Positions 4,330 through 63,228 of a stretch of 64,000 bases of DNA are shown here, one piece after another. Under the pieces are notes generated by a model, which saw only the letters and a program-made list of their open reading frames with translations, was not told where the DNA came from and did no database searches. The stretch is from an uncultured Litoreibacter sp. (GTDB lineage: Bacteria > Pseudomonadota > Alphaproteobacteria > Rhodobacterales > Rhodobacteraceae), in assembly GCA_947504205.1 (NCBI GenBank), contig CANNGL010000005.1:54751-118750 (forward strand). Reading direction: 5' to 3'. A program made the position numbers and the translations under genes. Positions within the stretch are counted from its first letter, which is position 1. Each line of letters begins with the position of its first letter.

Positions 4330-4475
4330 CCGAGCTTTAGGGCGTGTCCGTCGGTGGTGTCTTGATCAGCCTTTGGAGGGCTCACTTTTGAGGTATCAGC
4401 GCGCCGATTTTGGAATTTGGAAGATTTGGGTCATAGTGCGGCTTGTATTTTTTAAAGTATTTTATCGAGGGTGAC

Positions 4476-8647: not shown

Positions 8648-8666
8648 CGATGTAAAGAGAGGCGCC

Positions 8667-40385: not shown

Positions 40386-41651
40386 TTGACTAAAACATAC
40401 ACGATGGCTGTTCACGTCCCGATCTATATGGATGGTGACGAATGCTATGCGGCTGCCGAATGGCGCCGCGCCCTTTACCTTCTTCGTGACAGCTTTGCAG
40501 GGGCTTTTGACAGGTTCATCTGTGTTGCTCCAACATTGCAGGCTGCCGAAGACGGGCAGAATTTCAGCCTTTTGCCGGTTGGCGGTAGTCAGAAGGACGG
40601 ATGGGAGATCTCTCCTTCGATCTCATTGAAGATGGGCAAGCGCGAGTACTGGTTGATGGGTGGCCGTGCGCAATGGCGCCAAGATGTCGGGCGCGCTTTG
40701 GCCATCTCTGAGCTTGGACATATGGGGCTGGGTGATCTCTACCGTCCGATCAATTATGATGCGTTGCGCCTGTCACTGGACAGCGACGTTACAACCATTT
40801 TCGTTCGTGACACGGATGAGGTCACAAAGATGCGCAATCTGCTTGCCGCGAAGCAGATACGAAACGGGCCGGATCGCAAGCTTTACCTTTGGGCTTATGA
40901 GCGCGCGATGCGTAATGCGGTGGCGCGGGCGGATCTGTCTTTGCTGAAGGGGCGTGCTTTGATGACGCGCTATCAAGACTACGCCAAGAACCCCAAGTAT
41001 TTTCATAACACGTCCTACCATACGTCGGAAATTATCGCCTCTGAGGTAATTGAAACGCGCATTGCAACTTTGTCCGAAGGGCGGCCGTTGCGATTTGTCT
41101 ATTGCGGTCGGCTGGTACCGCGCAAAGGCTGTGATCATTCCATCCGGATGGTTTCCGCGGCGGTCAAGAACGGAGCGAATATTCGCTTTGATCTGATTGG
41201 CGACGGACCTCAGCGAGCGGAGCTTGAGGCGCTGGCCCATCAGGAAGGGGTTGCGGACCGGGTGAGTTTCTTGGGAGAGCGACCTTATGGATCTGATCTT
41301 CTGCTTGATCTGGCGCAGTATGATGGGCTGCTGTTCACCCCATTGTCGGAAGACACGCCCCGCATGATCTTTGATGGCTACGCCTCGGGTTTGCCATTGA
41401 TTGGATACGATATTCCTTATGTGCAGGAACGCGCGGCAGAAGAGCATGCAACGCACTTGCTGCCGGCGTTCGATATCGCCGGGGCTGCCACTGTTCTTCA
41501 GGATTTGGGCACACAGCGAAACAGGCTGTCAGATCTGGCAAAAGCGGCCCATCGGGCGGCTTTCGATAACGCTTCTGAAGTTTGGTACGAGCGTCGTGCC
41601 GACTGGACACTTGAGGCGCATGCGCGGCGGCAGGCAAGCCGCAGCGCATAG
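40386..41651 (+). CDS. Glycosyltransferase family 4 (GT-B, group 1)
   Basis: 421 aa. The C-terminal half has FVYCGRLVPRKG and EDTPRMIFDGYASGLPLIGYD, an EX7E-like GT4 region. TTG 40386 follows AGAGGG; an alternative ATG is at 40404. Confidence 0.72.
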   Translation: MTKTYTMAVHVPIYMDGDECYAAAEWRRALYLLRDSFAGAFDRFICVAPTLQAAEDGQNFSLLPVGGSQKDGWEISPSISLKMGKREYWLMGGRAQWRQDVGRALAISELGHMGLGDLYRPINYDALRLSLDSDVTTIFVRDTDEVTKMRNLLAAKQIRNGPDRKLYLWAYERAMRNAVARADLSLLKGRALMTRYQDYAKNPKYFHNTSYHTSEIIASEVIETRIATLSEGRPLRFVYCGRLVPRKGCDHSIRMVSAAVKNGANIRFDLIGDGPQRAELEALAHQEGVADRVSFLGERPYGSDLLLDLAQYDGLLFTPLSEDTPRMIFDGYASGLPLIGYDIPYVQERAAEEHATHLLPAFDIAGAATVLQDLGTQRNRLSDLAKAAHRAAFDNASEVWYERRADWTLEAHARRQASRSA

Positions 41652-42513: not shown

Positions 42514-42826
42514 AATACATTTCTCCAGTCACACTATACTCTGGGTCCCGCAGGGTTTGTATCAGAGTCTCTACAGCAGTTTCTATACAAACCCATCCTC
42601 GTTGCGAGTTGTGGTTACGAAATCTGTCAAATTTAAGTAAGATACCGGGACTATTTTTAGGAAGACCTTTTTCCAAGCCAAACACACTCGTGCAAGGATC
42701 AAGTCTTGCGTTTGCATCACTTGGCCTGATCCGGCATATGATTGGCCATGGTTTCATAAAACCTCACTTATTGATTTATTAAGCGCCCCGCATTGATCAC
42801 GATCAATGCCAGAATGAGATAGTATA

Positions 42827-43684: not shown

Positions 43685-43807
43685 GACATAATCACAAACT
43701 AGGCTTCCAACAGAAATTCCGGCCCGTGAGGACAAAGTACGTTATAGCCATGATGAAAAAGACCTGATATTCAACCTCCCGTGCTGGGTGGGATTTAGGG
43801 GTTTGAG

Positions 43808-44740
43808 ATGAAAAAGTTTTTTGCACCTTCTGCAGATACCGAGCTGAACAGCTGGCTCAGTGACAATATGGATGCGGTCCAGCAAGGCTTGTCAGACGAA
43901 GGTTTGGTGTTGTTCCGTGGGTTTGACACCGAAGACGCGGCGACGCTGAAAGGCACCTTGTCGCTCTTTGGGGCTGAGCCGATGACCGATGCGCGTTGGT
44001 CTACGCCACGCTCTTCTGTTGGGGAGGGGGCCTTTACCTCGACAGAATATCCGGCAGAGCAATGGATCGTTTTGCATTCCGAGATGTCTTATGCCCGTGC
44101 CTGGCCGCGCCTGCTGTTGTTCCAATGCAAGATCGCTGCGGAAACCGGTGGCGCCACAACCATCGCCAACCTGAAAGATGTCAGCACCGCTTTGGGCGAT
44201 ATTGTAGACGAATTCCACGAGCGCGAAGTGATCTATCAGCGGAACTTCCGCAAAGGTCTCGATATTCCGTGGCAAAATGCCTTTGGCACAGAAGACCCTG
44301 ATGAAGTGCTTGAGATCGGTAAGCGCAACGGGTTGGAGGTCGAATGGCAGGCCGACGGCACCCTGAAGACTGCGCAACAGGCGCAGGGCGCCATCCACGG
44401 CCCTGATGGGGCGATCTGGTTCAACCAGGCGCATCTGTTCCACCCCTGCCAGCTGCCAGCGGCCACACGTCAGGCACTGGTTGCCGCTTTAGGTGCAGAT
44501 GGTCTGCCGCGAAATGCTGTCTTCGGTGATGGGGAACCCATCCCTGATGCGACGATCGAACGTATCCTTCAAGTTCTCAGTCAGCATACCGAGAATATCG
44601 ATTGGCAGGATGGTGATCTGTCGATCATTGATAATATGCGTTGGATGCATGGTCGCTCGCCGTTTACCGGAACCCGCAAAGTTCTCGCGGCGATGGGCGT
44701 TCATCATGATGAAGCTGCTCTCACGCCGCTCTTTCAATAA
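43808..44740 (+). CDS. TauD/TfdA-family Fe(II)/2-oxoglutarate dioxygenase (clavaminate-synthase-like)
   Basis: 310 aa. The metal-triad candidates are HSE in VLHSEMSY and a distal His in IDNMRWMHGRSPF, the typical DN.R..HGR ending of this family. It ends 11 nt before the adenylation-carrier-acyltransferase gene. Confidence 0.8.
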   Translation: MKKFFAPSADTELNSWLSDNMDAVQQGLSDEGLVLFRGFDTEDAATLKGTLSLFGAEPMTDARWSTPRSSVGEGAFTSTEYPAEQWIVLHSEMSYARAWPRLLLFQCKIAAETGGATTIANLKDVSTALGDIVDEFHEREVIYQRNFRKGLDIPWQNAFGTEDPDEVLEIGKRNGLEVEWQADGTLKTAQQAQGAIHGPDGAIWFNQAHLFHPCQLPAATRQALVAALGADGLPRNAVFGDGEPIPDATIERILQVLSQHTENIDWQDGDLSIIDNMRWMHGRSPFTGTRKVLAAMGVHHDEAALTPLFQ

Positions 44741-44751
44741 GGTAGATATCT

Positions 44752-47700
44752 TTGGCTGCTGACCCGCCCGGATTGATTGAGGTTCGTGCCTTTTCCGGTG
44801 CCAACTCGCGCGCATATTTGTCGGCAGTCTTCGCTGCCTACCGCGACGGCGTCGTCGTTTTGGCCCTGCCGCCGGGATCAGGATCAAAAACGGTGCCGGG
44901 CACTCGCGTGCAAGAACGCAAGACATTCGACGATGATCCAGGCTGGTTTGACGAAAGCCTGGAGCTGATTACCAGCGACGATCCTGCGCAGATTGCTTTT
45001 TCGTCTGGGACGACGGGACGGCCAAAGGCGCTGTTGCTGACGCATCGCGCTTTGTCGGATGTGGTGGTGCGGATCAATGATGCTATGGGCGTCGATGACA
45101 GTATCCGGGAATATATCGGTGTCCCTGTCACGTTTTCCTTTGGCTTTGGCCGCGCCCGCGCCGTGGCAGCCGCAGGGGGCAAATCCTATCTTCCAAAAAA
45201 CGGATTTGATCCGGCAGAAATCGCCCGCATGGCTAAAGCCGGTGAGATCAATGCAATCTCTGCAGTTCCCACGCTCTGGCGGGTGGTTCTGGCAAATCCC
45301 GACGTCATCGGGGAGGCGGGTGCTACCATCCGCTGGATCGAAATTGGCAGCCAGTATATGGCCGCCGATGAGAAAGAGGGGCTGAAAAACCTCTTTCCCA
45401 ATGCGAAAATCGTCCAGCATTACGGTCTTACGGAGGCCTCCCGCACGACCCTTCTCGATATCAGTTCCACCAAGGGGGGAGCTCTGGAAAGCGTGGGGCA
45501 GACCACTGGAGAGGTCGAAATAGCACTGAATGAGGAGGGTGTAATCCGGACCCGTGGCCCTCATCTGGCATTGGGTCTGGTCTCAGGGGCAGGCATCAAG
45601 CCCTTTACTGATGCCGATGGCTGGCTGACCACGTCGGATCGAGGCCGGATCGAGGATGGATATCTTTATTATGAAGGGCGCACGGATGAACTGATCAATT
45701 CCGGTGGCCTAAAAATTGATCCCACCCAGTTTGAACAAAAGCTCAGTGCGGCCCTTGGCGTGTCCGACGCCGTGGCTGTTGGGCGTTTACCCGATGATCT
45801 GCGTGGAGAGAAGGTGCTGATCGTCACGCAGCAGGCTGCAGGATTGAAGCGGACGGATATAGAAGCTGCCGCGCAGAAGATTGCAACAGATCTTGGCCTG
45901 ACAGGATCAGGCTCTTTCGCTCTACGTGACGTGGCTGAAATCCCGCGAACCGCTACAGGAAAAGTGCAACGCGCGAAGCTCGCCGATTTGCCGGACATTG
46001 GCGCGTTGGAGGCCGCGGCGGAGCAGAGCACAGCCCGTCCGACGGAACAGGGAATGGGCAAGGCCGAGGAATTGCAGGCTCTTTGGGCCGAGGTTCTTGG
46101 TATTGATCATGTAGCCCTGAATCAAAGCTTCTATGATCTAGGCGGCGATAGTCTGTCGGCCCTGACTGTCATCATGCGCATGGAAGCGCTCGGACTGGAG
46201 CCTGAGATTGCCCGCGGTATCTTCGACGGCAAGACAATCGCAGAAATTACCGGCGTATCAGCGGAGCCGATATCAGAAGCTTCGCATCCAGATGTCTCGA
46301 CGCAGTCCGTTTCTGCTTCCGCTGATCCGCGTGCGGCGGAATTGCAGGCGATGTGGGCGGAGGTTTTGGGCGTCGAGGATGTTGCTCTGGACCAGAGCTT
46401 TTATGATCTGGGCGGTGACAGTTTGTCTGCCCTTACGGTCATCATGCGTATGGAGGCCCTGGGACTCGACCCCGAGACCGCCCGCGGCATCTTCGATGGC
46501 AAGACAATTGCAGAAATTACCGGAACATCATCCGCCCCGGCAGATAGGGCACCATCACAGGATACTCCAACACCATCCGCTTCTACCACAAACAACCCCA
46601 GGGCTGTGCAGTTACAAACTCTTTGGGCCGAGGTTTTGGGTGTTGAAAATGTTGCGTTGGACCAGAGTTTTTATGATTTGGGCGGTGATAGCCTGTCTGC
46701 TTTGACTGTAATCATGCGTATGGAAGCCCTCGGTCTAGAGCCTGAGATTGCCCGCGGTATCTTCGATGGCAAGACAATCGCAGATCTCGCTGGGGTAGAT
46801 ACTGATCCTGCGCCGGTTGCACAGCCTGCTCCAGAGACATCACCTGAAACTTCCGCCGCGCCCGTGACGCCGACAGATACTGCGAAGGATGGGATCACAC
46901 TTAATCTGGCAGAGGCCATGAATTCTGTGCATGCCACGCGGGGTGTTCTGGTTCTCTGGGTGGTTATGGTGCACTGGCTGCCCGGTGTCTTGGCACGGCT
47001 TACCGACAATGCCGTCAGCATATATGAGAGCCTAATCCCGGCGCTTCGCTTCGGCACGCCTGGTTTTGCGATGGTTTTCGGCATGGGGTTGGGCGCACTT
47101 GGTATTGCTCAATATACTCGCAGCAAGGCGCAATTTCTCAAAGGTTCTCGGTTCAATACCCGACTGATCGTTGCAGGTGTGCTGATCTACGCCGCCGTGA
47201 AATTTGCAATGTTGTGGAGTGCGGGACGTCTTGGCGAGCCATTGTTGCCATCGGTGCTGTTTTACTCAGCCATCACCTACTATGCCTTAGCCATGTTGAG
47301 TCTGCCGGTGATCTTGTGGGTCTTGACCCGTGGATCGAACCGCATGTTGACCATCCTGGCGACAGCTGTGGCCTGTATGATCATCCATGAGGTTCTGTTC
47401 GCCGCAATCGCCCATACCAAACCGGGTGGCATTCTGGAACTCTTCAAGGTGCTTCTGACCGCAAAATACGGGTTCTTCCGCATGTCGGGCTTTGTCATGA
47501 TCGGGGTCGCGATCGGTTATATGTACCGCGCGCATCACAAGACCCCCGGCATTGCACAGCATTTAGCGTTGGCTGGCGTGACCTCCATTAGCTTCGGGTT
47601 CTTCACGTTGTACAAGGTACAACCAGAGGTCTTCATGGATGGTTTTGGACGCGTTCTACCATGGCATCTGATGATCTATGCCGGAGCGGCATTGCTGATC

Positions 47701-47958
47701 CTGTCTGGGTTTTCTGTGCTCAACAGGGCGGGAGGTGCGGCTGTATCCCGGCCTTTGCAGACACTTAATGCTTTCGCGATTGCCAGCGGTATCCTGGCGC
47801 TGCCCATCTTTGTCGGCCATGAAATCGTGATCCCGGCCAAAGACCTGTTGACCAACCTTGGTTTGCCCGAAGGACTTGCGCTGATTGCGATGCTCGGTCT
47901 GTTTTTAGGAGCCCTCGGCTGGGGCTATATAAGGCTTTTCCGGTTTCTGCTTCGCTAG
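44752..47958 (+). CDS. Fusion protein: adenylate-forming (AMP-binding) domain + 3 tandem carrier (PP-binding) domains + C-terminal 10-TM acyltransferase-3-like membrane domain
   Basis: 1068 aa with a TTG start. The A-domain motifs are SSGTTGRPK (45001-45027), QHYGLTEA, GWLTTSDRG, GRTDELINSGGLKIDP and PRTATGKVQR. FYDLGGDSLSALTVIMRMEALGL occurs three times, with serine attachment sites at about aa 467, 557 and 647. From about aa 715 there are ten hydrophobic helices, starting HATRGVLVLWVVMVHW, an RG..(x)..H entry like Acyl_transf_3/OpgC. Confidence 0.85.
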   Translation: MAADPPGLIEVRAFSGANSRAYLSAVFAAYRDGVVVLALPPGSGSKTVPGTRVQERKTFDDDPGWFDESLELITSDDPAQIAFSSGTTGRPKALLLTHRALSDVVVRINDAMGVDDSIREYIGVPVTFSFGFGRARAVAAAGGKSYLPKNGFDPAEIARMAKAGEINAISAVPTLWRVVLANPDVIGEAGATIRWIEIGSQYMAADEKEGLKNLFPNAKIVQHYGLTEASRTTLLDISSTKGGALESVGQTTGEVEIALNEEGVIRTRGPHLALGLVSGAGIKPFTDADGWLTTSDRGRIEDGYLYYEGRTDELINSGGLKIDPTQFEQKLSAALGVSDAVAVGRLPDDLRGEKVLIVTQQAAGLKRTDIEAAAQKIATDLGLTGSGSFALRDVAEIPRTATGKVQRAKLADLPDIGALEAAAEQSTARPTEQGMGKAEELQALWAEVLGIDHVALNQSFYDLGGDSLSALTVIMRMEALGLEPEIARGIFDGKTIAEITGVSAEPISEASHPDVSTQSVSASADPRAAELQAMWAEVLGVEDVALDQSFYDLGGDSLSALTVIMRMEALGLDPETARGIFDGKTIAEITGTSSAPADRAPSQDTPTPSASTTNNPRAVQLQTLWAEVLGVENVALDQSFYDLGGDSLSALTVIMRMEALGLEPEIARGIFDGKTIADLAGVDTDPAPVAQPAPETSPETSAAPVTPTDTAKDGITLNLAEAMNSVHATRGVLVLWVVMVHWLPGVLARLTDNAVSIYESLIPALRFGTPGFAMVFGMGLGALGIAQYTRSKAQFLKGSRFNTRLIVAGVLIYAAVKFAMLWSAGRLGEPLLPSVLFYSAITYYALAMLSLPVILWVLTRGSNRMLTILATAVACMIIHEVLFAAIAHTKPGGILELFKVLLTAKYGFFRMSGFVMIGVAIGYMYRAHHKTPGIAQHLALAGVTSISFGFFTLYKVQPEVFMDGFGRVLPWHLMIYAGAALLILSGFSVLNRAGGAAVSRPLQTLNAFAIASGILALPIFVGHEIVIPAKDLLTNLGLPEGLALIAMLGLFLGALGWGYIRLFRFLLR
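46069..46794 (+). repeat. Three in-frame tandem repeats, period 270 bp (90 aa), encoding the carrier domains
   Basis: The 62-aa cores begin at 46069, 46339 and 46609 (ELQALWAEVLG / ELQAMWAEVLG / QLQTLWAEVLG). The cores are nearly identical at the protein level. Many synonymous differences separate them at the DNA level. The linkers between them are divergent and Ser/Pro/Ala/Thr-rich. Confidence 0.92.
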
Positions 47959-47967: not shown

Positions 47968-49581
47968 CTAGGTCTTGGGTGCATGCGCTTTGGCGACGAT
48001 ATCTGCGACCCGCAAAGCATTTGCCGCAATGGTCAGGCTCGGGTTCGTGCCACCACTCGTCGGCATGAAGGAACTGTCTACCACGTATAAATTGTCCAAC
48101 ATGTGTGCTTTGCAATTGGCATCCAGCACGCTGGTTTCGGGATCATCCCCAGCTTTGCATGTACCACAGGGATGGCCATAGTTCAGGGTCGCACGGTGGC
48201 TGAGAGGTAAAGAGTAAAGAGGTTTGAACCTTGCACGTAACAGTGTTTTCAGTTTGTGCGCTCGCTCAAGAAGCTCTGGGCGTATCGTGTAGTGAAATCG
48301 TATCCCCGATGCGCCATCAGGGTCCAACACGACACGGTTATCACGATAAGCATAGTCTTCGACGATGGTCGTGAAGACGGTCGCTTCTCCCAGAACACGG
48401 GACGCCAACCAAGCAGGGATCCGCAATAGTTGTCGGATCAAGGGTAGTTTACGAAGCGGGCTTTGATCGAAAGACAGACGCAGACTGTAAAGCACGTTCC
48501 CAAAATTAGCCGTTTGACCTGCAGACTGCAATTCACCGTACTTTTTCCCGTCGTAGCTGTAGAAATCCCGGATCGAGAGAGTTTTTGTTGGCCCTTTCTT
48601 CGAGTGTTGACCCCTCGGCCAAACGGCAATGGGGTCGCTCGCGTGAAACATAAGATTACGACCAACAAGATCGTTTTGATTTGCCAATCCGTCAGGCCAG
48701 CTTTCGTTGGTTGAACGCAAAAGAAGAGCGGGCGAAAAGTATGCCCCAGCCGCTAGAATTATAAGGGGTGCCGAAATTTGGCACTCTGTTTCCTCGTGTT
48801 GAATAATGACAGTGTGCGCAGCATTGGCGTTTGCCTCAATTCGAAGAACTTCGGCTTCGGCACAAAGCTTCACTTGGCCCGATTCAAGCGCAGGATCTAG
48901 CAGCGTGTTACGCGCATCTCGTTTACAGCCGCTCGGACAATAAGAGCCTAAACACTCCTTACATCCCGGTTCGTAGCCAATTCCGCTGTGCAAGCGGTAG
49001 GGGTGTAACCCTCCTTCCGTGAAGGATTTCAGAAAATACGCGTCACGCGCGCACATTTCAGGGGGTTCCGGCAAATGTGCTCCGGGGTCCGGACGAAGCG
49101 GGTCTTGCGTCCCGTGTACGCCAAAAAGCTGCTCTGCTTGGGTATAATAGGGCGCAATATCCTCGTAGGAAAAAGGCCACGAGATCTCTTTGCCATCAGG
49201 TGTCTTCTGTGGTGCAAAATCTTCTGGGCGCAGCCGATGAAGGGCTGCAGCATAAAGCGTGGTCGAGCCACCCGCACCAGAACCCAAGGGCGCCCAGATG
49301 TTCATATCGGCCCCGTCCAACCGTCCTGAGATTTGTGTAGGCCAGCGTCCATTCTCAAGACGTGTTGCCGGATCAGACATTTCCCGTGCGACAGAGCTAG
49401 CGGCTTGAAAGGCGCTGCGACCTTTCTCAATGACCAGAACTCGATAACCTTGCCGACTAAGTGACCAGGCTGCCGCGGAACCTCCCATCCCCGCACCGAT
49501 AATGAGGCAATCCCAATCTTGGTTTGCAGCTGCGGAAGCTGAGATCTTTTTGCTGGGCGTGTCGCTTCGTGTCATGGGCAT
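47968..49581 (-). CDS. GMC-family FAD oxidoreductase
   Basis: 537 aa with the N-terminal FAD fold DCLIIGAGMGGSAAAWSL. The C-terminal GMC region is YGHPCGTCKAG ... LYVVDSSFMPTSGGTNPSLTIAANALR. Confidence 0.85.
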   Translation of the reverse strand: MPMTRSDTPSKKISASAAANQDWDCLIIGAGMGGSAAAWSLSRQGYRVLVIEKGRSAFQAASSVAREMSDPATRLENGRWPTQISGRLDGADMNIWAPLGSGAGGSTTLYAAALHRLRPEDFAPQKTPDGKEISWPFSYEDIAPYYTQAEQLFGVHGTQDPLRPDPGAHLPEPPEMCARDAYFLKSFTEGGLHPYRLHSGIGYEPGCKECLGSYCPSGCKRDARNTLLDPALESGQVKLCAEAEVLRIEANANAAHTVIIQHEETECQISAPLIILAAGAYFSPALLLRSTNESWPDGLANQNDLVGRNLMFHASDPIAVWPRGQHSKKGPTKTLSIRDFYSYDGKKYGELQSAGQTANFGNVLYSLRLSFDQSPLRKLPLIRQLLRIPAWLASRVLGEATVFTTIVEDYAYRDNRVVLDPDGASGIRFHYTIRPELLERAHKLKTLLRARFKPLYSLPLSHRATLNYGHPCGTCKAGDDPETSVLDANCKAHMLDNLYVVDSSFMPTSGGTNPSLTIAANALRVADIVAKAHAPKT

Positions 49582-53540: not shown

Positions 53541-53778
53541 TTACGAATGGCTCTCGAAAAAGAAAAAGTTGCTAAAATGCGTTTCTAAAGTCGGAACCGG
53601 TGATACTGACGAATGTCCTAAGATTTCGTGATTGCACCGTTCGGTGCGTACTGCGGCTGGTGTGAGCGGCGAAGTACTATATCCAGGCCAATGTCATAGC
53701 TGCCCGAGTCACGGTCTGCGTAGGACATGATTATGACAAATCCGTTTGAAAAATTGCATCCTAATTCACCTAGGTGAT

Positions 53779-55356
53779 ATGAGCGCAGATATGATTGCAT
53801 TTGCAAATTTCGTCCTGTTCACATGGCCTTTGGTCGTGTTGACCTTGCTCAAGCGCAAGCCTGTGGATGTGGCAATCATATTGACGATCCTGGTGGGTAT
53901 CTTGATTTTGCCCTCGGATCTTGGGTTTGATCTGCCGCTACTGCCTGAAATCGACAAAGAGATACTGCCCAGTCTGTCCGCAGTGATCATCTTGCTGATC
54001 ATGGGGAAATCCATCCTGCGCACCGATGCCGTCGTCCTGCCGGGCTGGTTGCCCCGGTCCAAAGTTGCCCTGAGTTTGATTGTTTTGCTGATTGTCAGTT
54101 CGTTTCTGACCGTCATGACCAACGATGATGTTTTGGTCTATGGCCCGCGGGTTTTGCCTGCTTTACGACTTTACGATGCATTTTCGTTTACCGTCGATTT
54201 GCTGGTTTTTATTTTACCCTTGCTTCTGGCTCGGAAATTTTTGGCACATCCCGAAAGTCACAAAACGCTTTTGATCATTTTGAGCATTGCCATGCTGTGG
54301 TATTCGCTTCCGACGCTTTACGAAGTGCGTATGTCCCCACAGATCAACCGGATGTTTTACGGGTTCTTCCCGCAGGACTGGCGACAGCATATCCGTGCCG
54401 GCGGTTTCAGACCGATCGTCTTTATGGATCATGGGCTGGTTTTGGGTCTGTTTCTGTGCATGGCGATCTTGTCGAGCATCATGCTGTTTCGGATGGAAAA
54501 GGATAACAAGAAGGCCCTTTATCTGGCTGGTACCGTCTGGCTGATCTTCACGCTGGTCTTGGCAAAAACCCTGGGTGCCCTCATGATTGCTCTCGTGCTG
54601 ATCCCGGCAGCCTTCTTGTTCGGCATTCGGCTGCAGATGATTACTGCCGCCATTATTGCAGGTATTGTTCTAACCTATCCGGCCGTGCGTGGGGCAGGGT
54701 ATGTGCCAACAGAAAACATCGTCGCCTTTTCCGCCGATATCAGTCAGGAACGTGCGGATTCATTGGCTTTCCGCTTCAGGCATGAAGACGCACTTTTGGA
54801 CAAAGCCAATGAACGACCTCTGTTTGGCTGGGGTGGTTGGGGGCGCAGCCGCGTTTTTGATGATCGAGGACGCAACACCAGCGTGACGGATGGCGCATGG
54901 ATCATCAGTGTCGGACACGGTGGCTGGATCCGATACGTAGGTGAATACGGACTTTTATGTATCAGCGTTATTCTTCTGGCCATACGGCAGCGCAAATACG
55001 AGATTGGTATGGCCACCTCGGGCCTGTGTCTGGTGCTGGTTGCCAACCTGATCGATCTTTTGCCAAATGCAGGGATCACCCCTCTGACATGGATAATGGC
55101 CGGCGCTTTGATGGGGCGTTTGGAATTGCAGACTATCCAAAAGACATCCGCCGCAGCTGCTGATCCGGAAGAGGAGCGCAGGTTGCGCTATAGCCGAGCC
55201 ACCGACACGACCATTCCGGCTGCACCTCCCAAAGGAGCAGTTTATACGCGTAAAGCTCGTTCTGAAGACCTCGATGCAGCTCAGGCTGCTCCGTCGTCTG
55301 CTGATACAACTCCGATATACCGGCGCAACACGCCCATACGCCAAAGAAAAACATAG
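53779..55356 (+). CDS. O-antigen ligase / Wzy-like polysaccharide polymerase family membrane protein
   Basis: About 525 aa with at least 10 TM segments. A large loop region, DGAWIISVGHGGWIRYVGEYGLLCI, resembles the Wzy_C/O-antigen-ligase signature. The C-terminal tail is low-complexity. The start is uncertain: TTG 53746 or ATG 53779/53791. Confidence 0.62.
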   Translation: MSADMIAFANFVLFTWPLVVLTLLKRKPVDVAIILTILVGILILPSDLGFDLPLLPEIDKEILPSLSAVIILLIMGKSILRTDAVVLPGWLPRSKVALSLIVLLIVSSFLTVMTNDDVLVYGPRVLPALRLYDAFSFTVDLLVFILPLLLARKFLAHPESHKTLLIILSIAMLWYSLPTLYEVRMSPQINRMFYGFFPQDWRQHIRAGGFRPIVFMDHGLVLGLFLCMAILSSIMLFRMEKDNKKALYLAGTVWLIFTLVLAKTLGALMIALVLIPAAFLFGIRLQMITAAIIAGIVLTYPAVRGAGYVPTENIVAFSADISQERADSLAFRFRHEDALLDKANERPLFGWGGWGRSRVFDDRGRNTSVTDGAWIISVGHGGWIRYVGEYGLLCISVILLAIRQRKYEIGMATSGLCLVLVANLIDLLPNAGITPLTWIMAGALMGRLELQTIQKTSAAAADPEEERRLRYSRATDTTIPAAPPKGAVYTRKARSEDLDAAQAAPSSADTTPIYRRNTPIRQRKT

Positions 55357-55357
55357 T

Positions 55358-56323
55358 ATGTCTCACAAAATCGCGGTCTCAATCATCAATTTCCGTACTG
55401 CCGATTTGACCATCCAAGCTGTACAATCTGTGCGTGATGATCTGACTGGAATCGATGCAGAAATCATTGTGGTCGACAACCTGTCGGGGGACGGGTCTGC
55501 CGAGAGAATTGAAGACTGGATCACACAACAGAACGATCCGCGCCTTTCTTTGGTGCTATCTGATAAGAATACCGGCTTTTCGGGGGGGCACAATCAGGGG
55601 TTTGCCGCCAGCGATGCTGAATTTCTGTTGGTGTTGAATTCTGATGCAATTGTTCGACCCGGCTTCTTCAAGGCTCTGCTGGAGACGGCTGAGACCAATC
55701 CAAAGGCAGGATTAATCGCCCCTCGTCTGGAAGGTGAAGACGGTGTCGCACAAACCAGCTGCTTTCGGTTCCACACACCACAATCCGAGCTGATAAGAAG
55801 TGCCAAGACAGGTTTCATCTCCAGACTTCTGCGCAGGTACGACGTCCCTCTAGCTCCAGAACCCGATCCCTCTCAGATCGAATGGGCGAGCTTTGCCTGC
55901 ATCTTGCTTCGTACTGAAATGATCCGCGATATAGGTCCCATGGATGAAGGCTATTTTCTCTATTTTGAGGACAGTGAGTATTGCCTGCGCGCGCGTAGGG
56001 CCGGATGGCATATAGCCTATGCTCCAAATGCGGTTGCCGTCCATTTTCGTGGCGGGAGTGGACCGGTCAAGGCCTTGGCCAAAGCCGGGAAGCGCCTGCC
56101 GCGGTATTTTTACAGCTCACGCAGCCGCTTTTTCTATCAGGCTCATGGCAAAATCGGCCTTTGGTCTGCCAATTTATGTTGGTATGTCGGCCGCGCATTA
56201 GCCGGATTGCGTGCTCTGGTTGGCAAACCAACACCCCCGATGGTCGAGCAGGAATATCGTGATATCTGGATCAATGCTTTCAACCCACTTGGGCCCCGAC
56301 GCGCACCAGGAGATTCAGAGTGA
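55358..56323 (+). CDS. Glycosyltransferase family 2
   Basis: MSHKIAVSIINFRTADLT ... IIVVDNLSGDGS ... DKNTGFSGGHNQG ... FLYFEDSEYCLRA, the typical GT2 (rhamnosyltransferase-like) pattern. The ATG is 2 nt after the upstream stop. Confidence 0.85.
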   Translation: MSHKIAVSIINFRTADLTIQAVQSVRDDLTGIDAEIIVVDNLSGDGSAERIEDWITQQNDPRLSLVLSDKNTGFSGGHNQGFAASDAEFLLVLNSDAIVRPGFFKALLETAETNPKAGLIAPRLEGEDGVAQTSCFRFHTPQSELIRSAKTGFISRLLRRYDVPLAPEPDPSQIEWASFACILLRTEMIRDIGPMDEGYFLYFEDSEYCLRARRAGWHIAYAPNAVAVHFRGGSGPVKALAKAGKRLPRYFYSSRSRFFYQAHGKIGLWSANLCWYVGRALAGLRALVGKPTPPMVEQEYRDIWINAFNPLGPRRAPGDSE

Positions 56324-57165
56324 GTTTGCCAGATTTCATGATTATCGGCGCAATGAAATGCGGAACCTCAACCCTGCAGGCACAACTCGCAGCCCAACAG
56401 GGCGTGTTCATGACAACGCCCAAGGAACCCAATTTCTTCTCCGATGATGCGGAATATGCAAAGGGCTTGGATTGGTATCGCGGTCTCTACGATGCAGCGG
56501 ACGCGCATGCATTGAGGGGCGAGGCCAGTACACATTATACTAAACTACCCACCTATCCGCATACGCTGCCCCGAATGACCCAGGTCCTCGAAAGCCAAAA
56601 GCTGATCTACATGATCCGTAACCCAATCACCCGGGCGATCTCTCATTACATCCATGAATGGACCGAAGCGCGCATGGGCCATGATCCGATTGCGGCATTC
56701 CAAACCGCGCCTGAGTTGATCGACTATGGGCGTTATGCCTATCAAATCACTCCATACATCGAAGCTTTTGGCTCAGAGCATATTCACCTCACCAGTCTGG
56801 AACAACTGAAGGCTGACCCCCAAGGAGAGCTCAGCCGCATCGGCGCCTTCCTCGATTTGCCACACCAAGCCATTTGGAATGATGAGATCGGGGCACAAAA
56901 TGTCTCTGCGGCGCGGGTGCGCAAGTTTCCCCTGCAAGGCCTGCTCATCGACAATCCTGTGGCTCAGACTTTGCGGCGAGTGCTGGTTCCTAAAGCCCTA
57001 AGGACGCGTATTCGAGAGGCCCGTACGTATGGGGAACGTCCCGAGCTGCCCGACACGCTTCTTCGGGATATGGAAAACCGCTTTGCCGCGGATCATGACG
57101 AGCTTGCAGCACTCTTCCCTGACCACCCAGCACTGACCCTTTGCTATCCGTTTCTACAAAAATGA
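56320..57165 (+). CDS. PAPS-dependent sulfotransferase
   Basis: 281 aa. FMIIGAMKCGTSTLQAQL is a 5-prime-PSB loop, and IYMIRNPITRAISHY is a 3-prime-PB region. The GTG start overlaps the upstream TGA (GTGA). Confidence 0.85.
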   Translation: MSLPDFMIIGAMKCGTSTLQAQLAAQQGVFMTTPKEPNFFSDDAEYAKGLDWYRGLYDAADAHALRGEASTHYTKLPTYPHTLPRMTQVLESQKLIYMIRNPITRAISHYIHEWTEARMGHDPIAAFQTAPELIDYGRYAYQITPYIEAFGSEHIHLTSLEQLKADPQGELSRIGAFLDLPHQAIWNDEIGAQNVSAARVRKFPLQGLLIDNPVAQTLRRVLVPKALRTRIREARTYGERPELPDTLLRDMENRFAADHDELAALFPDHPALTLCYPFLQK

Positions 57166-58127
57166 GCCGGAGCAACACAATCGGCGCCGTCATCATCGGG
57201 CGCAATGAAGGTGACAGGCTTGTGCGTTGTCTCGCCTCAATGGGTGACCAGATAGAGGCCGTTGTCTATGTCGATAGCGGTTCTACAGATGGCAGCGTTG
57301 AACAAGCGCAGCGGGTAGGTGCTGATGTTGTTTTGCTCGATATTGATCGTCCCTTTACTGCGGCTCGGGCACGTAATGCTGGTCTTGCTCATTTGCAAAA
57401 CTGCAAGACACCGCCTGATCTGATCCAATTCATCGATGGGGACTGCGAATTGAGGGCCGATTGGCTGCAAACAGCGACGGCTTTTCTTGAAACTCGTGAC
57501 GATGTTGCTGTTGTCTGCGGGCGCCGGCGCGAACGTTTCCCAGACAGTACGATCTACAACCGCCTTATTGATGCGGAGTGGGATACCCCCATTGGCGAGA
57601 CCAAAGCCTGTGGTGGCGATGCCTTGATGCGACTAAGTGCGCTGCAGGAGGTTGGTGGATATAACCCGAGCCTGATCGCTGGCGAAGAGCCAGAGCTCTG
57701 CGTGCGTCTGCGTCAAGCAGGTTGGAAAATATGGCGATTGGACGCCGAAATGACCTGGCATGACGCTGCAATTACACGTTTGGAGCAATGGTGGAAGCGT
57801 GCCAAACGCGCAGGCCACGCATTCGCAGAAGGAGCCGCTTTGCATGGTGATCCTCCTGAACGTCACTATGTTGCGCCGACACGCCGCGCGTTGGTCTGGG
57901 GAGCCGGCATACCTGTTCTGGCACTCCTCGGTCTGTTTTGGAGCCCCTTGTCCTTGCTGATCTTGGGTCTGTGGCCACTCCAAATCATACGCTTGGCGCT
58001 GCGTGATGGAGACTGGGCTCAAAGTCTGTTTCTTACTTTAAGTAAAGTACCGGAGGCTTTCGGCGCACTCAGCTACTATAAAAAGCGCCTGACGCACCAA
58101 CGTTCCGAGCTTATCGAGTACAAATAG
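57162..58127 (+). CDS. Glycosyltransferase family 2 with C-terminal TM segments
   Basis: MSRSNTIGAVIIGRNEGDRLVRCL ... VYVDSGSTDGS ... FIDGDCEL (DxD). Its ATG overlaps the sulfotransferase TGA (ATGA at 57162-57165). Confidence 0.8.
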   Translation: MSRSNTIGAVIIGRNEGDRLVRCLASMGDQIEAVVYVDSGSTDGSVEQAQRVGADVVLLDIDRPFTAARARNAGLAHLQNCKTPPDLIQFIDGDCELRADWLQTATAFLETRDDVAVVCGRRRERFPDSTIYNRLIDAEWDTPIGETKACGGDALMRLSALQEVGGYNPSLIAGEEPELCVRLRQAGWKIWRLDAEMTWHDAAITRLEQWWKRAKRAGHAFAEGAALHGDPPERHYVAPTRRALVWGAGIPVLALLGLFWSPLSLLILGLWPLQIIRLALRDGDWAQSLFLTLSKVPEAFGALSYYKKRLTHQRSELIEYK

Positions 58128-58141
58128 CCTTAGGTGCTCCC

Positions 58142-59041
58142 CTATGTCGGTTGGGGGTCGCCGAAGATGTGAAGTGGAAACGAATTGCGGATTTCGGCTT
58201 TTTTACGGGGAAGGTTTTTGAAATAGGCAAATTCCGCTTTTGCGACCTTCCCCTTAAGCGCAGGGCTATCCCTCAATTCAATAGCTTCCGGCAGGTTGCG
58301 TCCAATCGAAAGACCGTAATCGAAAAACTTGAACGGATGCGTTACAGCATCCATGTCCACGCCCTGAAACCAATAGTTTGGGATTTCCAGTGAATCCGCC
58401 ACGACAAGACCATGGAGGCTTGATGAGAAGATGATTTCGCAAGATGCCATCTCCTCCATGCAAGCCTGACAATCCTCGGTCCGGTAATCAATCAACCGCA
58501 CGCCAGGAATGGACTTCAAATCTTTTATATATTCTTCTTTGGACCATTGGCTGCGATGGGGAACAATCCCCACACCCTTGGCATCAGTGGCTTGAGACAT
58601 CTCGAAAACCTCATCCACTAAAAGACCCGGATCACCGGTGGGCAGGTTTTTATCTTCCGCGGCCATGCAAGTTAGCGGCCCCCGAACAAGATGGTGGTGC
58701 AGCCCTTCCAAAGAACCTACCGCCTCAACCGGCTTCATGATCCCTGAACCCCAAACATGGACGTCACGCAGATACCGCCGGCTTCTTTGCCGCAACCAGC
58801 CATAAATGCTCCCGATCGAGCACATATTGCACTCATCCAAAGAGGCCCATTCTACCGGTCGGCCGGACAAATGCTCGACAATGATCGGACTTAATAGATC
58901 GCCAAAATTCGCTCTCTCGTTCCACCAATAGAGTTTGATGGGCAACGGAAGCGTATCTGCTTTTTGCGATCGGAATACTTTTTGGGCATGACCCAGAGAT
59001 TGGCCAACCTGATGTTTCAAAAGCGTCTTATAGTCAAACAT
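58142..59041 (-). CDS. Polysaccharide pyruvyl transferase family protein
   Basis: 299 aa. LYWWNERANFGDLLSPIIVEHLSGRP is the characteristic N-terminal motif of PS_pyruv_trans proteins (CsaB/WcaK-like). Confidence 0.78.
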   Translation of the reverse strand: MFDYKTLLKHQVGQSLGHAQKVFRSQKADTLPLPIKLYWWNERANFGDLLSPIIVEHLSGRPVEWASLDECNMCSIGSIYGWLRQRSRRYLRDVHVWGSGIMKPVEAVGSLEGLHHHLVRGPLTCMAAEDKNLPTGDPGLLVDEVFEMSQATDAKGVGIVPHRSQWSKEEYIKDLKSIPGVRLIDYRTEDCQACMEEMASCEIIFSSSLHGLVVADSLEIPNYWFQGVDMDAVTHPFKFFDYGLSIGRNLPEAIELRDSPALKGKVAKAEFAYFKNLPRKKAEIRNSFPLHIFGDPQPT

Positions 59042-59082
59042 ACACCACTCTTCATATAGGGGTTGGTTGGGCTGGTCGCGTT

Positions 59083-60159
59083 CTATGGACCAGTTTTGAT
59101 CTTTCGGATCGGACGAGCAGCCATTGAGAACGCCTGTTCCAGCGCACGAGGATCGACTTCGAACGGATCGAGAGAAAATTTGTCAAACGGCGGCTCTGTT
59201 TCGTAAATCATGGGTAAATATTCAGGTTTCATGCGTCCGCGAACACCTATCCAGTCACATCCCACTTGTTCTGACATAACCCGAAAAACATCCGTCATGT
59301 GTCCGCAAGGCATGATCTCGACCATCTGACAGGGCGGCAGCTCAGGATTTCGATAAAGCAAAGGTGCCATTCCAGCGCCGTGTATCGCCACGATCGCCTG
59401 AGCCTCCCGGAACAACCTGAATTGATCAATAACAGGCAGGTCTTCGGGATAAAGCGTAACAAATCCGAAATCAGCTAGAAGCGCTTCGACCTCTTCCATA
59501 TTCGAGATCGATCTGGTGTCCCGGCGAGCCAGAAAGACTCTGTCGGGCAAAGCCTCGCGTCCTTGGCTCTCCCGGGCCAATATGTCCATTACGGTGTCTG
59601 TTTGTACACAATCGACCCACACGGCGCGCAACACAGTTCCGGGGGTAAGGGTGAAATCTACATAATCAGCCTCGACCGGAGCTTCTGTCGTCAATACCGA
59701 AAGTTCGAACAACTCGGCTGCAGCCAGAATATAGGTCGGGATGTTTTCCGGCAAAAGGATCAGAGTTTGTTCTCGCTCAAGTGACAGGCTGGTCGTGATT
59801 TTGAAGAAAATTGCCAGATGGTAATTGAGGAAATGCGCCCAGTTCTGAGGTTGCGTGCGCCGAAAATCAAACACGATACTGTCGGACACAACCACTGTGT
59901 TGCGCTTGAGTTTGCGGAAATAATCAAGCCGTCCCGAAGACTGAGCCGGACGGGTGACCCCATGGACGATGCCAAACTCAAGCTTGCCACCACCGGCAAT
60001 TTTTGGAGGAGCCGCGATCACCTCACAGGCCGGCACAAAGCGGTCCATAAGATATGACGACGCCCCGATCACCGTTGACGGCTTTGATTTGTAGCTCGGA
60101 ATATCAAGGACGGTAAAACCGGTCGACATGCTGCTGCTCGTTTTCGTGCTCTTCAACAC
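59083..60159 (-). CDS. Glycosyltransferase family 61 (DUF563) protein
   Basis: 358 aa. FREAQAIVAIHGAGMAPLLY matches the conserved HGAG..N/P region of DUF563/GT61 capsular biosynthesis proteins. Confidence 0.68.
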   Translation of the reverse strand: MLKSTKTSSSMSTGFTVLDIPSYKSKPSTVIGASSYLMDRFVPACEVIAAPPKIAGGGKLEFGIVHGVTRPAQSSGRLDYFRKLKRNTVVVSDSIVFDFRRTQPQNWAHFLNYHLAIFFKITTSLSLEREQTLILLPENIPTYILAAAELFELSVLTTEAPVEADYVDFTLTPGTVLRAVWVDCVQTDTVMDILARESQGREALPDRVFLARRDTRSISNMEEVEALLADFGFVTLYPEDLPVIDQFRLFREAQAIVAIHGAGMAPLLYRNPELPPCQMVEIMPCGHMTDVFRVMSEQVGCDWIGVRGRMKPEYLPMIYETEPPFDKFSLDPFEVDPRALEQAFSMAARPIRKIKTGP

Positions 60160-60243
60160 GCTATCATCTTTTTACAGTTATGCACCCGCACTAACCACAG
60201 GGACGGTAACCAGACAAGAACCTAAAAAGATGGCAAAATGAGG

Positions 60244-60618
60244 TCAGGCATGATCACTAAGCTTAGATCGCCCGAGTATGCGTAGGACTGTGTTTCGCCC
60301 TGTGCGCAGCACAGGATATAAGAGGCGCGACGCTGTGCGGTTGCTGAAAATCATTGCATTGACCCGATTGAACAAACCAAAGGAGGTCGACATCAGGGCA
60401 AGCTGGTGAATGCATTCATCGCCATGGCTAACGCGATCTCCATCGACCAGCGCCATACCTTCATCAAGATCATAGCCCTCGGCCTGTAAACGTTCGACAA
60501 CAGGGTGGGGTACCCGGGCGTCCAGAAGCTCGACCGGGCCAATTGCGTCTTTCAATCGCAACATCGCCACATAGCGTGAACAGAAGGGGCATTCGCCATC
60601 ATATACAATATATTTCAT
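60244..60618 (-). CDS. DCC-family thiol-disulfide oxidoreductase (DUF393)
   Basis: 124 aa. The N-terminal IVYDGECPFCSRYV carries the D-x-x-C-x-x-C signature of the DCC family. It starts 2 nt after the upstream stop. Confidence 0.8.
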   Translation of the reverse strand: MKYIVYDGECPFCSRYVAMLRLKDAIGPVELLDARVPHPVVERLQAEGYDLDEGMALVDGDRVSHGDECIHQLALMSTSFGLFNRVNAMIFSNRTASRLLYPVLRTGRNTVLRILGRSKLSDHA

Positions 60619-60620
60619 CT

Positions 60621-62243: not shown

Positions 62244-63228
62244 TGTCCTGCTCCGACTTGGAAGATCTTTGTGCGCTTGAGAACAAACCACCGACAGACT
62301 TCATAGTAATCAAAAACAAGGCCCGCCATTTGCGTGCTCGTTTTGGCTGATAGGCCAGTGCCCAGAACGCTTTTTTAACAGCCAAACCATAGCGCTGCTG
62401 AGATAACTGCCACCAAGCCTCGGCTTCCATCAAGCCGGAAGCACGGGCATCGACGCTCATATGCGCCACGGCGTCACCCTCTACAGGCGCGAAAGGCAAG
62501 GCTTCCCCTTTATCAAGATCGTCCGTCTTGCCCGCGAGGCGTTGCTGTGCGAATTCCCGCGCTTTGCCGCTATAGTACCGCCGCCGCGCATCGCTGGCAC
62601 TGTGTGAAATTGACGAGCCTCGCAGCAGGTATTCATAAGCCAGACCGGGCAGGAACATAATGCGCCCAGCCTGCGCAAGACGATATTGTAAATCCAGATC
62701 CTGCGATGAAATGAAGAAATCCCGCAAGCCGCCGATCTCCAGCAAAGCATCTCTACGAATTAGAAACGTGCCAAGATGTGTGCGTTCTCTGCCTTCGAGC
62801 AGTGCCTCCGTCAGGTCTTCTTCCTGATCCGTCAGAGGCGATACTGAAACATCGAACCCGTTTTCCAGAAAAACTCTATAATGCCCAGCAACTGCTACAA
62901 AATCCGGATGGTTCTCTAGAAAGGCAATTTGTTTGGCAAACCGGCCTGTCACAAGTAAATCATCAGCATCACACCGAGCGATGTAAGGCAGTTGTGTGGT
63001 ACGCGTGCCTGTATTGAGGGCAGCCGATTGCCCAACACCTTCATTCGAGATCAACAAGACCCGACTATCGGTGAACCCTTGCACGATGTCTTGGCTTCCA
63101 TCGGTGGATCCATCATCAATGACGATCAATTGACCAACCTCTGGCAGAGCCAGAACGGAGTTGATGGAGGCGTCAATTGTATCTGCGGCGTTCTTACAGG
63201 CCATCAATATACAAACTGGACCAGGCAT
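62233..63228 (-). CDS. Glycosyltransferase family 2
   Basis: 331 aa with CILMACKNAADTI ... LIVIDDGSTDGS ... IARCDADDL (DxD). Confidence 0.85.
   Translation of the reverse strand: MPGPVCILMACKNAADTIDASINSVLALPEVGQLIVIDDGSTDGSQDIVQGFTDSRVLLISNEGVGQSAALNTGTRTTQLPYIARCDADDLLVTGRFAKQIAFLENHPDFVAVAGHYRVFLENGFDVSVSPLTDQEEDLTEALLEGRERTHLGTFLIRRDALLEIGGLRDFFISSQDLDLQYRLAQAGRIMFLPGLAYEYLLRGSSISHSASDARRRYYSGKAREFAQQRLAGKTDDLDKGEALPFAPVEGDAVAHMSVDARASGLMEAEAWWQLSQQRYGLAVKKAFWALAYQPKRARKWRALFLITMKSVGGLFSSAQRSSKSEQDNAG

Follow-up and report, generated by a model that had tools for sequence, protein, structure and literature searches.

A divergent AT3/TmAT membrane domain fused to adenylation and carrier domains, and its possible role in carrier-dependent glycan acylation

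Acyltransferases of the AT3/TmAT type are the main bacterial route to surface-glycan acylation, which affects a strain's serotype, its susceptibility to phages and its resistance to lysozyme and to host immunity. We analyzed a 64,000-nucleotide stretch of DNA from an uncultured Litoreibacter sp. (contig CANNGL010000005.1; hereafter the window), in which a single gene fuses an adenylation domain (A), three phosphopantetheinyl carrier domains (T) and a membrane domain (M) that we assign to a divergent branch of these enzymes. AT3 enzymes (PF01757), such as OafA/OafB, OatA, Oac, ExoH/ExoZ and WecH, share with the fusion family a core of ten transmembrane (TM) helices with a broken helix 9, the motifs R-x10-H in TM1 and F-x4-G in TM2, a first cytoplasmic loop that, by sequence position, appears basic, and a G...[FY]..H block in TM9, as well as a glycan-locus setting and a presumed acyl transfer from the cytoplasm to an extracytoplasmic glycan. 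They differ in that most fusion-family members, the window protein included, score under the Pfam threshold, carry carrier and adenylation domains at the N-terminus, have lost the TM1 Asp and mostly replace the TM9 Ser/Tyr by Ala/Phe; the donor of the fusion family, moreover, would be a protein-bound phosphopantetheine thioester and not acyl-CoA. The AT3 fusions named in reviews have a C-terminal SGNH domain (PMC9558356, PMC12423673) or a C-terminal alanine racemase domain (PMC9558356). Acyl-CoA "rather than" acyl carrier protein (ACP) has been argued to be the physiological AT3 donor (PMC9558356), and the TmAT pore is treated as an acyl-CoA site in a paper that contains none of the words carrier, adenylation, AMP-binding, phosphopantetheine or NRPS (PMC12423673). 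An earlier note, made from the window sequence alone, had also stated that AT3 enzymes generally draw on acyl-CoA, in agreement with the literature (PMC9558356). We lean towards the reading that the gene encodes a self-contained, carrier-dependent membrane acyltransferase that decorates an exported glycan, with Dlt-like logic on an AT3 fold.

In the Dlt system, phosphopantetheinylated DltC hands D-alanine to the membrane acyltransferase DltB. The fusion protein would resemble DltABCD in that an ANL enzyme loads a phosphopantetheinyl carrier, which feeds a polytopic membrane acyltransferase acting on an extracytoplasmic polymer. Dlt, however, consists of four separate proteins with a full-size, D-Ala-specific DltA, whereas the fusion family combines a truncated, acid-ligase-like A domain and one to four carriers with an AT3 fold in one polypeptide. 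Because the MBOAT fold of DltB is structurally distinct from TmAT (PMC12423673), the fusion protein would work like Dlt without being a member of it. The AlmEFG system for lipid A glycylation in V. cholerae is similar in that an A domain and a carrier supply an aminoacyl group for cell-envelope decoration. Its components are separate proteins, its acceptor is lipid A, and AlmG is a lipid A acyltransferase-type enzyme of the lysophospholipid acyltransferase superfamily at the cytoplasmic face; the fusion protein would work like AlmEFG without being a member of it. Human HGSNAT (8jkv, 8vlv and others), which transfers an acyl group across the membrane through a pore, was the sole confident match among solved structures, at 13-15% sequence identity and with no match at the sequence level. 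It differs from the window domain by an extra N-terminal helix and a luminal domain, by its use of acetyl-CoA and by an Asn in place of the AT3 His. Finally, the exosortase-A-associated set of acyl-CoA ligase, ACP and pyridoxal phosphate (PLP)-dependent decarboxylase (TIGR03098) also places an ANL ligase and a carrier in exosortase exopolysaccharide (EPS) loci. The window A domain matched TIGR03098 with E 1e-32, at 113 bits well under the cut-off of 592. An exosortase gene was found in 11 of 68 fusion loci, and one locus (L005) holds the ligase/carrier/decarboxylase trio beside the A-T-M gene. The TIGR03098 set differs in that its proteins are separate and lack a fused membrane acyltransferase, and it is itself uncharacterised.

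The membrane domain of the window protein does not reach the PF01757 gathering threshold (31 bits), whereas relatives match this profile. The standalone relative P0051 passes with 36.6 bits, the fused P0054 scores 30.5 bits (E 2.6e-7, profile positions 3-321 of 326) and the fused P0026 scores 20.7 bits (E 2.4e-4). Matches to PF01757 at E<=0.1 were obtained for 14 of the 66 family members scanned; in several relatives they run along the full profile length, and no other membrane family recurred. Because relatives match PF01757 and the window domain does not, AT3 homology of the window domain is supported transitively, as for a divergent branch. The earlier note had described the C-terminal region as AT3-like. 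This description stood by way of the PF01757 matches in the family, the motifs and the fold, and failed in the profile searches with the window protein itself, in which the AMP-binding (PF00501) and PP-binding (PF00550) profiles did match.

We then counted conservation in an alignment of 129 complete membrane domains. The window protein carries RGVLVLWVVMVHW at residues 730-742, within which R730 is Arg in 128 members and H741 is His in 128, at a spacing of exactly R-x10-H. F772 and G777, which form the F-x4-G motif of TM2, are each invariant (129/129). Both the R/K-x10-H and the FxxxxG motif have been described for AT3/TmAT proteins (PMC9558356, PMC12423673). The first cytoplasmic loop of the window protein reads K797-G-S-R800 and may correspond to the RxxR motif, judged by sequence position. 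The sixth long helix of the model contains G918 (129/129) and G922 (126/129), candidates for the conserved TM6 Gly (G514 in HGSNAT). In TM9, the block G1013-x2-[A/S]-[L/F]-P-x-[F/Y]-x2-H1023, with P1018 and F1020 in the window protein, was aligned by hhalign with the AT3 block 'G..SY.iYL.H'. The two family columns that correspond to SxxxY hold Ala in 93 and Ser in 27 members at the first position, and Phe in 81 and Tyr in 45 at the second.

Structure prediction is consistent with this assignment. A first AlphaFold2 model of the membrane domain, built from 8 sequences, had a pLDDT of 73.6; a second, built from 23 diverse members, reached a pLDDT of 91.1 and a pTM of 0.90. The second model consists of ten long helices with short connecting helices, and its helix 9 is broken at domain residues 314/316, within the G1013..P1018 block. 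A broken ninth helix is characteristic of the TmAT fold (PMC12423673). In a Foldseek search of the PDB, the top seven matches were all HGSNAT chains (prob 1.00, TMq 0.52-0.54); past HGSNAT, prob was at most 0.28 and TMq at most 0.24, which leaves HGSNAT as the only confident solved fold, and the same HGSNAT-first pattern was obtained with the weaker model. A transporter fold, which the earlier note had raised as an alternative, gave no confident match among these Foldseek PDB matches. PDB chains searched with the family sequence profile gave no match at E<=10, and a fold search of BFVD returned one confident match, an unnamed 637-aa viral protein that is not interpretable. By homology through the family and by predicted fold, we place the membrane domain in the AT3 family of the TmAT superfamily, as a divergent branch at or below the Pfam threshold.

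Next, we examined how far the fusion extends beyond the window. A word-indexed homologue search found only 7 relatives, both with the single domain and again with a 23-sequence profile; they share 50-55% identity and have carriers in front of the membrane domain wherever the sequence is long enough. The family came to light when 1.84 billion cluster representatives were searched exhaustively with a HMMER profile, which matched at least 300 representatives (clusters at 50% identity) at E<=1e-3 and 127 at E<=1e-30, with the membrane domain nearly always C-terminal. Among 155 family sequences, A, T and M occur together in 101, and the remainder are nearly all fragments. The most frequent form, seen in 78 of the 155, is a protein of 850-930 aa with a compact A domain, one carrier and the membrane domain; 13 have an N-terminal extension (a full-size A, or condensation and adenylation domains, C-A), and 10 have two to four carriers. 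C-A-T-M proteins of ~1400 aa exist (P0042, P0045, P0076 and others; P0043 has 1210 aa). Because the same membrane domain closes full-size A-T and C-A-T modules, it trails the carriers regardless of the type of A domain. From the C-A-T-M forms, the membrane domain may also be a point of exit for products that are N-acylated or peptidyl.

When one genome of each species was scanned for the motif GTPGFAx[VI]FG, 68 loci were recovered. A-T(n)-M is encoded as one ORF (open reading frame) in 61 of them, with one carrier in 56, two in 1, three in 3 and four in 1; the 7 exceptions are cut at a contig end or split by a frameshift. The cross-genome search that the earlier note had proposed thus showed a widespread architecture whose usual form has one carrier. 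Three carriers are a minority state, seen in the Roseobacter-group clade of the window and in Microbulbifer. Within the Rhodobacterales, the gene occurs in Cognatiyoonia sediminum (58% identity, the closest), Roseobacter sinensis, Shimia, Paracoccus and Sedimentitalea, and elsewhere in Sphingomonadales, Microbulbifer, Gynuella, Chlorobium, Planctomycetota, Phycisphaerales and Desulfosarcina. Three membrane domains appeared to stand alone; two of these are frameshifted or edge-cut fusions, and the only true standalone form, P0051, has neither an A nor a T neighbour. Standalone domains beside separate A and T genes, which a 'Rosetta stone' test would use, gave no independent support, and the fusion is nearly obligatory. 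Since the exceptions are contig-cut or frameshifted and only P0051 stands alone, we consider the fusion, from this comparison of sequences, a conserved state under selection. At the P0051 locus (L076, 3413-7110), the start of the P0051 gene overlaps the end of the gene for an 862-aa protein. Judged by eye, that protein begins with a hydrophobic stretch like a signal peptide, and it gave a faint Cellulase match; the locus also contains an exosortase and WecG.

The gene in the window is an uninterrupted 1068-codon ORF at 44752-47958 (+), which agrees with the single 1068-aa polypeptide described earlier, and every motif quoted for it was found in its place. The start codon is TTG, 11 nt past the stop codon of a gene for a TauD/TfdA-family oxygenase (TauD), with an AAGG Shine-Dalgarno-like sequence between the two, and TauD and the fusion gene are probably co-transcribed. 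Pfam found three PP-binding domains (PF00550, 116.8 bits in total) whose GGDSLS motifs start at residues 464, 554 and 644, as had been claimed for the three carriers, and the GGDSLS serines Ser467, Ser557 and Ser647 are the predicted phosphopantetheine acceptors. A flexible Pro/Ala/Thr-rich linker of ~35 residues joins carrier 3 to TM1. Pfam detected neither a condensation (PF00668) nor a thioesterase (TE) match in the window protein, and no C, TE or R domain downstream of the A-T unit; canonical features of a nonribosomal peptide synthetase (NRPS) module (condensation, TE/R release, the alpha-amino Asp of A4) were likewise not found by Pfam and PDB alignment. The fusion protein is a member of the ANL and peptidyl carrier protein (PCP) families and a divergent member of AT3/TmAT.

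The carrier repeats raise the question of whether the ORF is an artefact in which separate genes were joined by a frameshift or by mis-assembly. Related metagenomic contigs are indeed broken in or near this region: in L001 (8428-11833), A and T-T-T-M lie in different frames, L002 (8804-11266) is fragmented, and L077 (110-2928) has a frameshift between T and M. These frame changes fall in or near the carrier repeats, the split genes are called as 'phosphopantetheine-binding' or unannotated fragments, and errors of assembly or sequencing in these repeats probably account for the splits. In the window, by contrast, the ORF is uninterrupted and the 90-residue carrier units have diverged, with 80-83% protein identity in the core and 74-78% DNA identity. 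Each pair of carriers shows 27-30 synonymous codon differences, the differences between repeats are mostly at synonymous sites, and the longest exact DNA match is 29 nt. Tandem Repeats Finder detected nothing in the carrier region because the units are too diverged. The sequences thus indicate that the three carriers are old, selected duplicates and not a collapsed or mis-joined repeat. The same single ORF, moreover, occurs in the 61 of 68 independent loci given above, many of them in isolate genomes. Taken together, these data reject the artefact, which had been named as a possible refutation and which we regard as extremely improbable. In Chlorobium loci a phosphopantetheinyl transferase gene lies immediately upstream of the fusion gene, which makes a functional carrier likely. 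Tandem carriers raise throughput in other multi-carrier synthases and, by analogy, would do so in the fusion.

The A domain points to the kind of acid that may be activated. The ANL core motifs A3, A5, A7, A8 and A10 were all located, and the window protein shows the P-loop SSGTTGRPK at residues 84-92, QHYGLTEA at 222-229 (YGLTE at 224-228), TTSDRG at 293-298, GRTDELINSGGLKIDP at 309-324 and PRTATGKVQR at 398-407. PF00501 matched residues 68-275 with 89 bits (cut-off 29.9), spanning profile positions 154-382 of 384 only. The full ANL N-terminal subdomain of ~150 residues before the P-loop is not present; 83 residues precede the motif, residue 62 of the fusion protein aligns with residue 147 of the oxalate-CoA ligase chain in a PDB sequence match, and ~85-110 N-terminal residues of related ligases are absent. 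The short A domain reported earlier, with about 83 aa ahead of the P-loop-like motif, was thereby recovered from both the Pfam start at 154 and the PDB alignment. This compact A domain is the commonest form in the family, and in most of the 850-900 aa proteins it begins no more than ~20 residues from the N-terminus. Oxalate-CoA ligase 5ie0 (E 1e-20) and malonyl-CoA synthetase 4fuq gave the best matches in the PDB; further relatives in NCBIfam and PDB are long-chain/FadD-type ligases, TIGR03098, MenE and beta-aminoacyl-ACP synthetases. The relatives are acid-CoA and acid-ACP ligases, with all scores far under the equivalog cut-offs. The A4 region VTFSFGFG aligns with LFHVHG of acyl-CoA ligases, and the Asp that binds the alpha-amino group is absent. 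By sequence, the domain comes nearest to canonical oxalate-, malonyl- and fatty-acyl-CoA ligases, with its N-terminal part cut short. Since its relatives are acid ligases and the A4 Asp is missing, the activated substrate is probably a carboxylic acid and not a standard alpha-amino acid. We also considered two other assignments. An amino-acid-type NRPS A domain is unlikely, given that the nearest NCBIfam and PDB matches are acid ligases and that the A4 region lacks the Asp. A PaaK/CapK-type ligase, to which the domain had been thought closer, was unsupported by the PDB ranking, with neither among the best 60 of 143 matches.

These features suggest the following route, whose direction of acyl flow, donor, acceptor and oxygenase step we infer. 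The compact ANL domain would adenylate a carboxylic acid with ATP, and the acid would be loaded as a thioester onto the phosphopantetheine arms of the three fused carriers. In the clade of the window, the adjacent TauD-type oxygenase may then hydroxylate the acyl group. The flexible linker would allow a loaded carrier to dock at the cytoplasmic mouth of the AT3/TmAT domain, where the phosphopantetheine arm would enter the pore lined by R730 and H741, and the acyl group would cross the membrane and be attached to the exported polysaccharide at a hydroxyl or amino group. This acceptor would probably be sulfated and pyruvylated, and made by the surrounding genes. Chemically, the phosphopantetheine arm is identical to the pantetheine portion of CoA, at its distal end. 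The conserved pore residues of TmAT proteins bind the pantetheine part of acyl-CoA (PMC12423673), and a switch of donor from CoA to a carrier would therefore need little change in the pore. The TM1 Asp of DxxR is reported to be dispensable in the AT3 protein OacB (PMC12423673); we speculate that its loss in the family may be related to the loss of the nucleotide end of CoA.

Several observations weigh against this reading. Residues 701-1068 of the window protein gave no Pfam match at E<=10 and no NCBIfam match at E<=0.01, and a local-mode hhalign comparison with four bona fide AT3 proteins from related loci reached a weak E of 0.005, with negative controls at E 0.04-0.5. At position -3 of the TM1 Arg, where DxxR has its Asp, the 129 aligned domains hold Asn in 84, His in 21 and Asp in 4; the RxxR columns are Lys/Arg in 72 (56%) and 82 (64%) members; and the window protein has A1016..F1020 in place of the TM9 SxxxY motif. 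No SGNH or other periplasmic partner was identified for the fusion protein, and housekeeping genes lie within ~5 kb in a sizeable minority of loci. Finally, all experimentally established AT3 donors are acyl-CoA (PMC9558356). This last point also favours a different explanation, in which the carrier does not feed the membrane domain, and the latter is an acyl-CoA-dependent AT3 enzyme or an importer or anchor for the A-T unit, the fusion serving co-localisation only. The retained pore residues are those said to bind the pantetheine/CoA part (PMC12423673), so that CoA may still bind, and the function of VanT's AT3 domain is unsettled, a transporter role having once been suggested (PMC9558356). 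The order A-T(n)-M, however, is constant, with the carrier immediately before TM1 in at least 100 divergent proteins and with three types of A module. Of the three seemingly standalone forms, two are fusions that have been broken; the protein offers the A-T unit no further catalytic partner downstream (no C, TE or R), and the Asp of DxxR in TM1 is not retained. On this evidence we consider a membrane domain that is not fed by its carrier quite unlikely.

A second alternative concerns the acceptor. The AT3-like domain could be a terminal domain for off-loading, with, for example, a membrane lipid, an undecaprenyl-linked intermediate, a small molecule or water receiving the acyl group, and the product would then be a lipid or a secreted metabolite. 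The ~1400-aa C-A-T modules that end in the same membrane domain resemble NRPS termination modules, and a seed search found no polysaccharide gene in 29 of the 68 loci, 20 of which are mixed by Pfam. The TmAT relative PIG-W/GWT1, which acts on lipid-linked inositol, also counts for a non-glycan acceptor. Another TmAT relative, TraX, acetylates a protein (PMC12423673). Against this, characterised bacterial AT3 enzymes overwhelmingly modify glycans (PMC9558356), the Pfam-annotated contexts of the window and of L001, L003/L004, L005 and L006/L007 are all polysaccharide clusters, and the window gene itself lies among GT2, GT4 and GT61 glycosyltransferase, Wzy, sulfotransferase and pyruvyl transferase genes. 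We therefore regard off-loading to a non-glycan acceptor as unlikely and prefer the decoration of an exported glycan.

Of the 68 loci, 39 gave one or more neighbours of polysaccharide type in a single-seed search, which is insensitive. Matches were to GT4 in 27 loci, GT2 in 18, WecG in 13, exosortase in 11, Wzy in 10, TauD in 7 (directly upstream in 5) and ACPS in 4. A Pfam batch of 124 neighbours from 20 loci without a seed match included sugar-nucleotide epimerases/dehydratases, Polysacc_synt_2, Bac_transf and PEP-CTERM, and also APS kinase, sulfate transport and TauD, alongside housekeeping genes. The neighbours of L001 include GT4, GT2, AT3, TauD, WecG, Wzy and a sulfotransferase; those of the Chlorobium loci L003/L004 include GT2, GT4, AT3, GT25 and WecG, with an ACPS phosphopantetheinyl transferase directly upstream; and those of L006/L007 include exosortase, GT2, a sulfotransferase and AT3-SGNH, with TauD directly upstream. 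In L005, a separate AMP-binding ligase, a carrier of 80 aa and an Orn/DAP-type PLP decarboxylase are encoded consecutively (2347-5417), next to a flippase, AT3 and A-T-M, and the locus also has glycosyltransferases. The fusion gene is thus associated with polysaccharide genes, often for sulfated polymers; this setting is predominant, and the check proposed by the earlier note bore out the association (seed search and Pfam contexts) and, given the mixed neighbourhoods, not its universality. A sulfation theme is also seen at single loci, with a sulfotransferase at 56320-57165 in the window and, in L015-L064, with APS kinase, PAPS-related enzymes, a CysQ-like phosphatase and sulfate transporters as neighbours of the fusion gene, so the target polymers may often be sulfated.

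A search of open-access literature and preprints found no description of an A-T-AT3 fusion, in line with the earlier note, which did not recognise this architecture as a characterised system. Its parts and overall logic are known; the combination, the AT3 donor that it implies and the size of the unannotated family are new. Whether the fusion family is the first AT3/TmAT lineage that uses a covalently fused phosphopantetheinyl carrier as donor, and not acyl-CoA, is a closer call, which we judge to fall slightly on the affirmative side. If so, glycan acylation would be freed from the cellular acyl-CoA pool, and acids activated by ATP and tailored on the carrier, for example by TauD hydroxylation, could be attached to exported polysaccharides; the A-T and C-A-T variants would extend the same exit route to NRPS-type products. 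Dlt follows the same logic with a fold that is unrelated, and the parallel would clearly amount to convergent design. A family with a carrier fused to the pore domain also offers a natural, genetically compact test of other donor chemistry, and the tethered donor-enzyme complex could help structural work on the entry of the pantetheine arm into the pore. There is also an annotation gap, in that Pfam and NCBIfam miss the membrane domain and the public names of family members are generic ('AMP-binding protein', 'phosphopantetheine-binding protein'). The acyl decorations that these genes imply on marine and environmental exopolysaccharides are overlooked because the genes are filed under such names.

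Table 1. Coordinates of the fusion gene, its domains and neighbouring genes in the window
Feature	Coordinates	Strand	Basis
GT4 glycosyltransferase	40386..41651	+	PF00534/PF13692
2OG-Fe(II) oxygenase	41674-42513	-	PF13640; weak similarity to cyclophane-peptide oxygenase YhhC
TauD/TfdA-family Fe(II)/2-oxoglutarate (2OG) oxygenase	43808..44740	+	PF02668, E 1.4e-30
Whole fusion gene, 1068 aa, A - T - T - T - AT3-like membrane domain	44752..47958	+	ORF list, Pfam
Compact ANL adenylation domain, ~residues 1-425	44752..46026	+	PF00501, motifs, PDB relatives
Carrier 1, Ser467 in GGDSLS (codon 46150-46152)	46063..46272	+	PF00550
Carrier 2, Ser557 (codon 46420-46422)	46333..46542	+	PF00550
Carrier 3, Ser647 (codon 46690-46692)	46603..46812	+	PF00550
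Divergent AT3/TmAT acyltransferase domain, residues 717-1068, 10 TM helices	46900..47955	+	conservation, model, Foldseek
GMC-family FAD oxidoreductase, convergent, 9 nt from fusion stop	47968..49581	-	PF05199/PF00732
1000-aa protein with G8, CEMIP-like beta-helix and Big_9/cadherin-like domains	49633-52635	-	
Ig-like 299-aa protein	52641-53540	-	
Rest of polysaccharide cluster: Wzy_C-like polymerase/ligase, three GT2, sulfotransferase, pyruvyl transferase, GT61	53746..63228		Pfam

In the window (Table 1), the TauD protein has as its best solved relative the clavaminate-synthase-like At3g21360 (1y0z, E 3e-28). A TauD gene lies directly upstream of the fusion gene also in L006/L007 and in 5 of the 68 genome loci, and in L001 a TauD gene lies ~40 nt upstream of the A-domain-coding region. 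From this adjacency, TauD may be a tailoring enzyme for the acyl group, either free or carrier-bound. In L002 and in 3 of the 68 genome loci, the fusion gene likewise has a homologue of the other 2OG-Fe(II) oxygenase nearby. The GT4 glycosyltransferase shows weak, sub-threshold similarity to EpsE-type and PEP-CTERM-type GT4 models. Downstream, a homologue of the GMC oxidoreductase was found in only 4 of the 68 related loci, and its membership in the system is uncertain. The gene for the G8/beta-helix protein is transcribed convergently to the fusion gene, and its product may be secreted and bind or cleave glycans.

Five ORFs, at 37829-39682, 42315-42782, 42827-43684, 60621-62291 and 19752-21329 (617, 155, 285, 556 and 525 aa, respectively), gave no family match in Pfam and/or NCBIfam, and phmmer detected no homologue of the first three in the 68 related genome loci. 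Between the 2OG oxygenase and TauD lie the ORFs of 155 aa and 285 aa. Up to ~37 kb, the window contains housekeeping genes (RND efflux, PolA, trpA, ychF), and a tRNA-Ser(GCT) gene at 39952-40041 lies just upstream of the first polysaccharide gene, the GT4 gene at 40386. GC content is 0.484 at 42001-44000, compared with ~0.53-0.56 elsewhere in the window; together, the tRNA-Ser gene and this dip may mark the edge of a horizontally acquired island. Further upstream, 1816-3342 (-) encodes a GGDEF/EAL c-di-GMP phosphodiesterase-type protein and 8505-10070 (+) a sensor histidine kinase that resembles PrsK, the kinase of the PEP-CTERM system, below threshold; both may regulate biofilm or EPS production.

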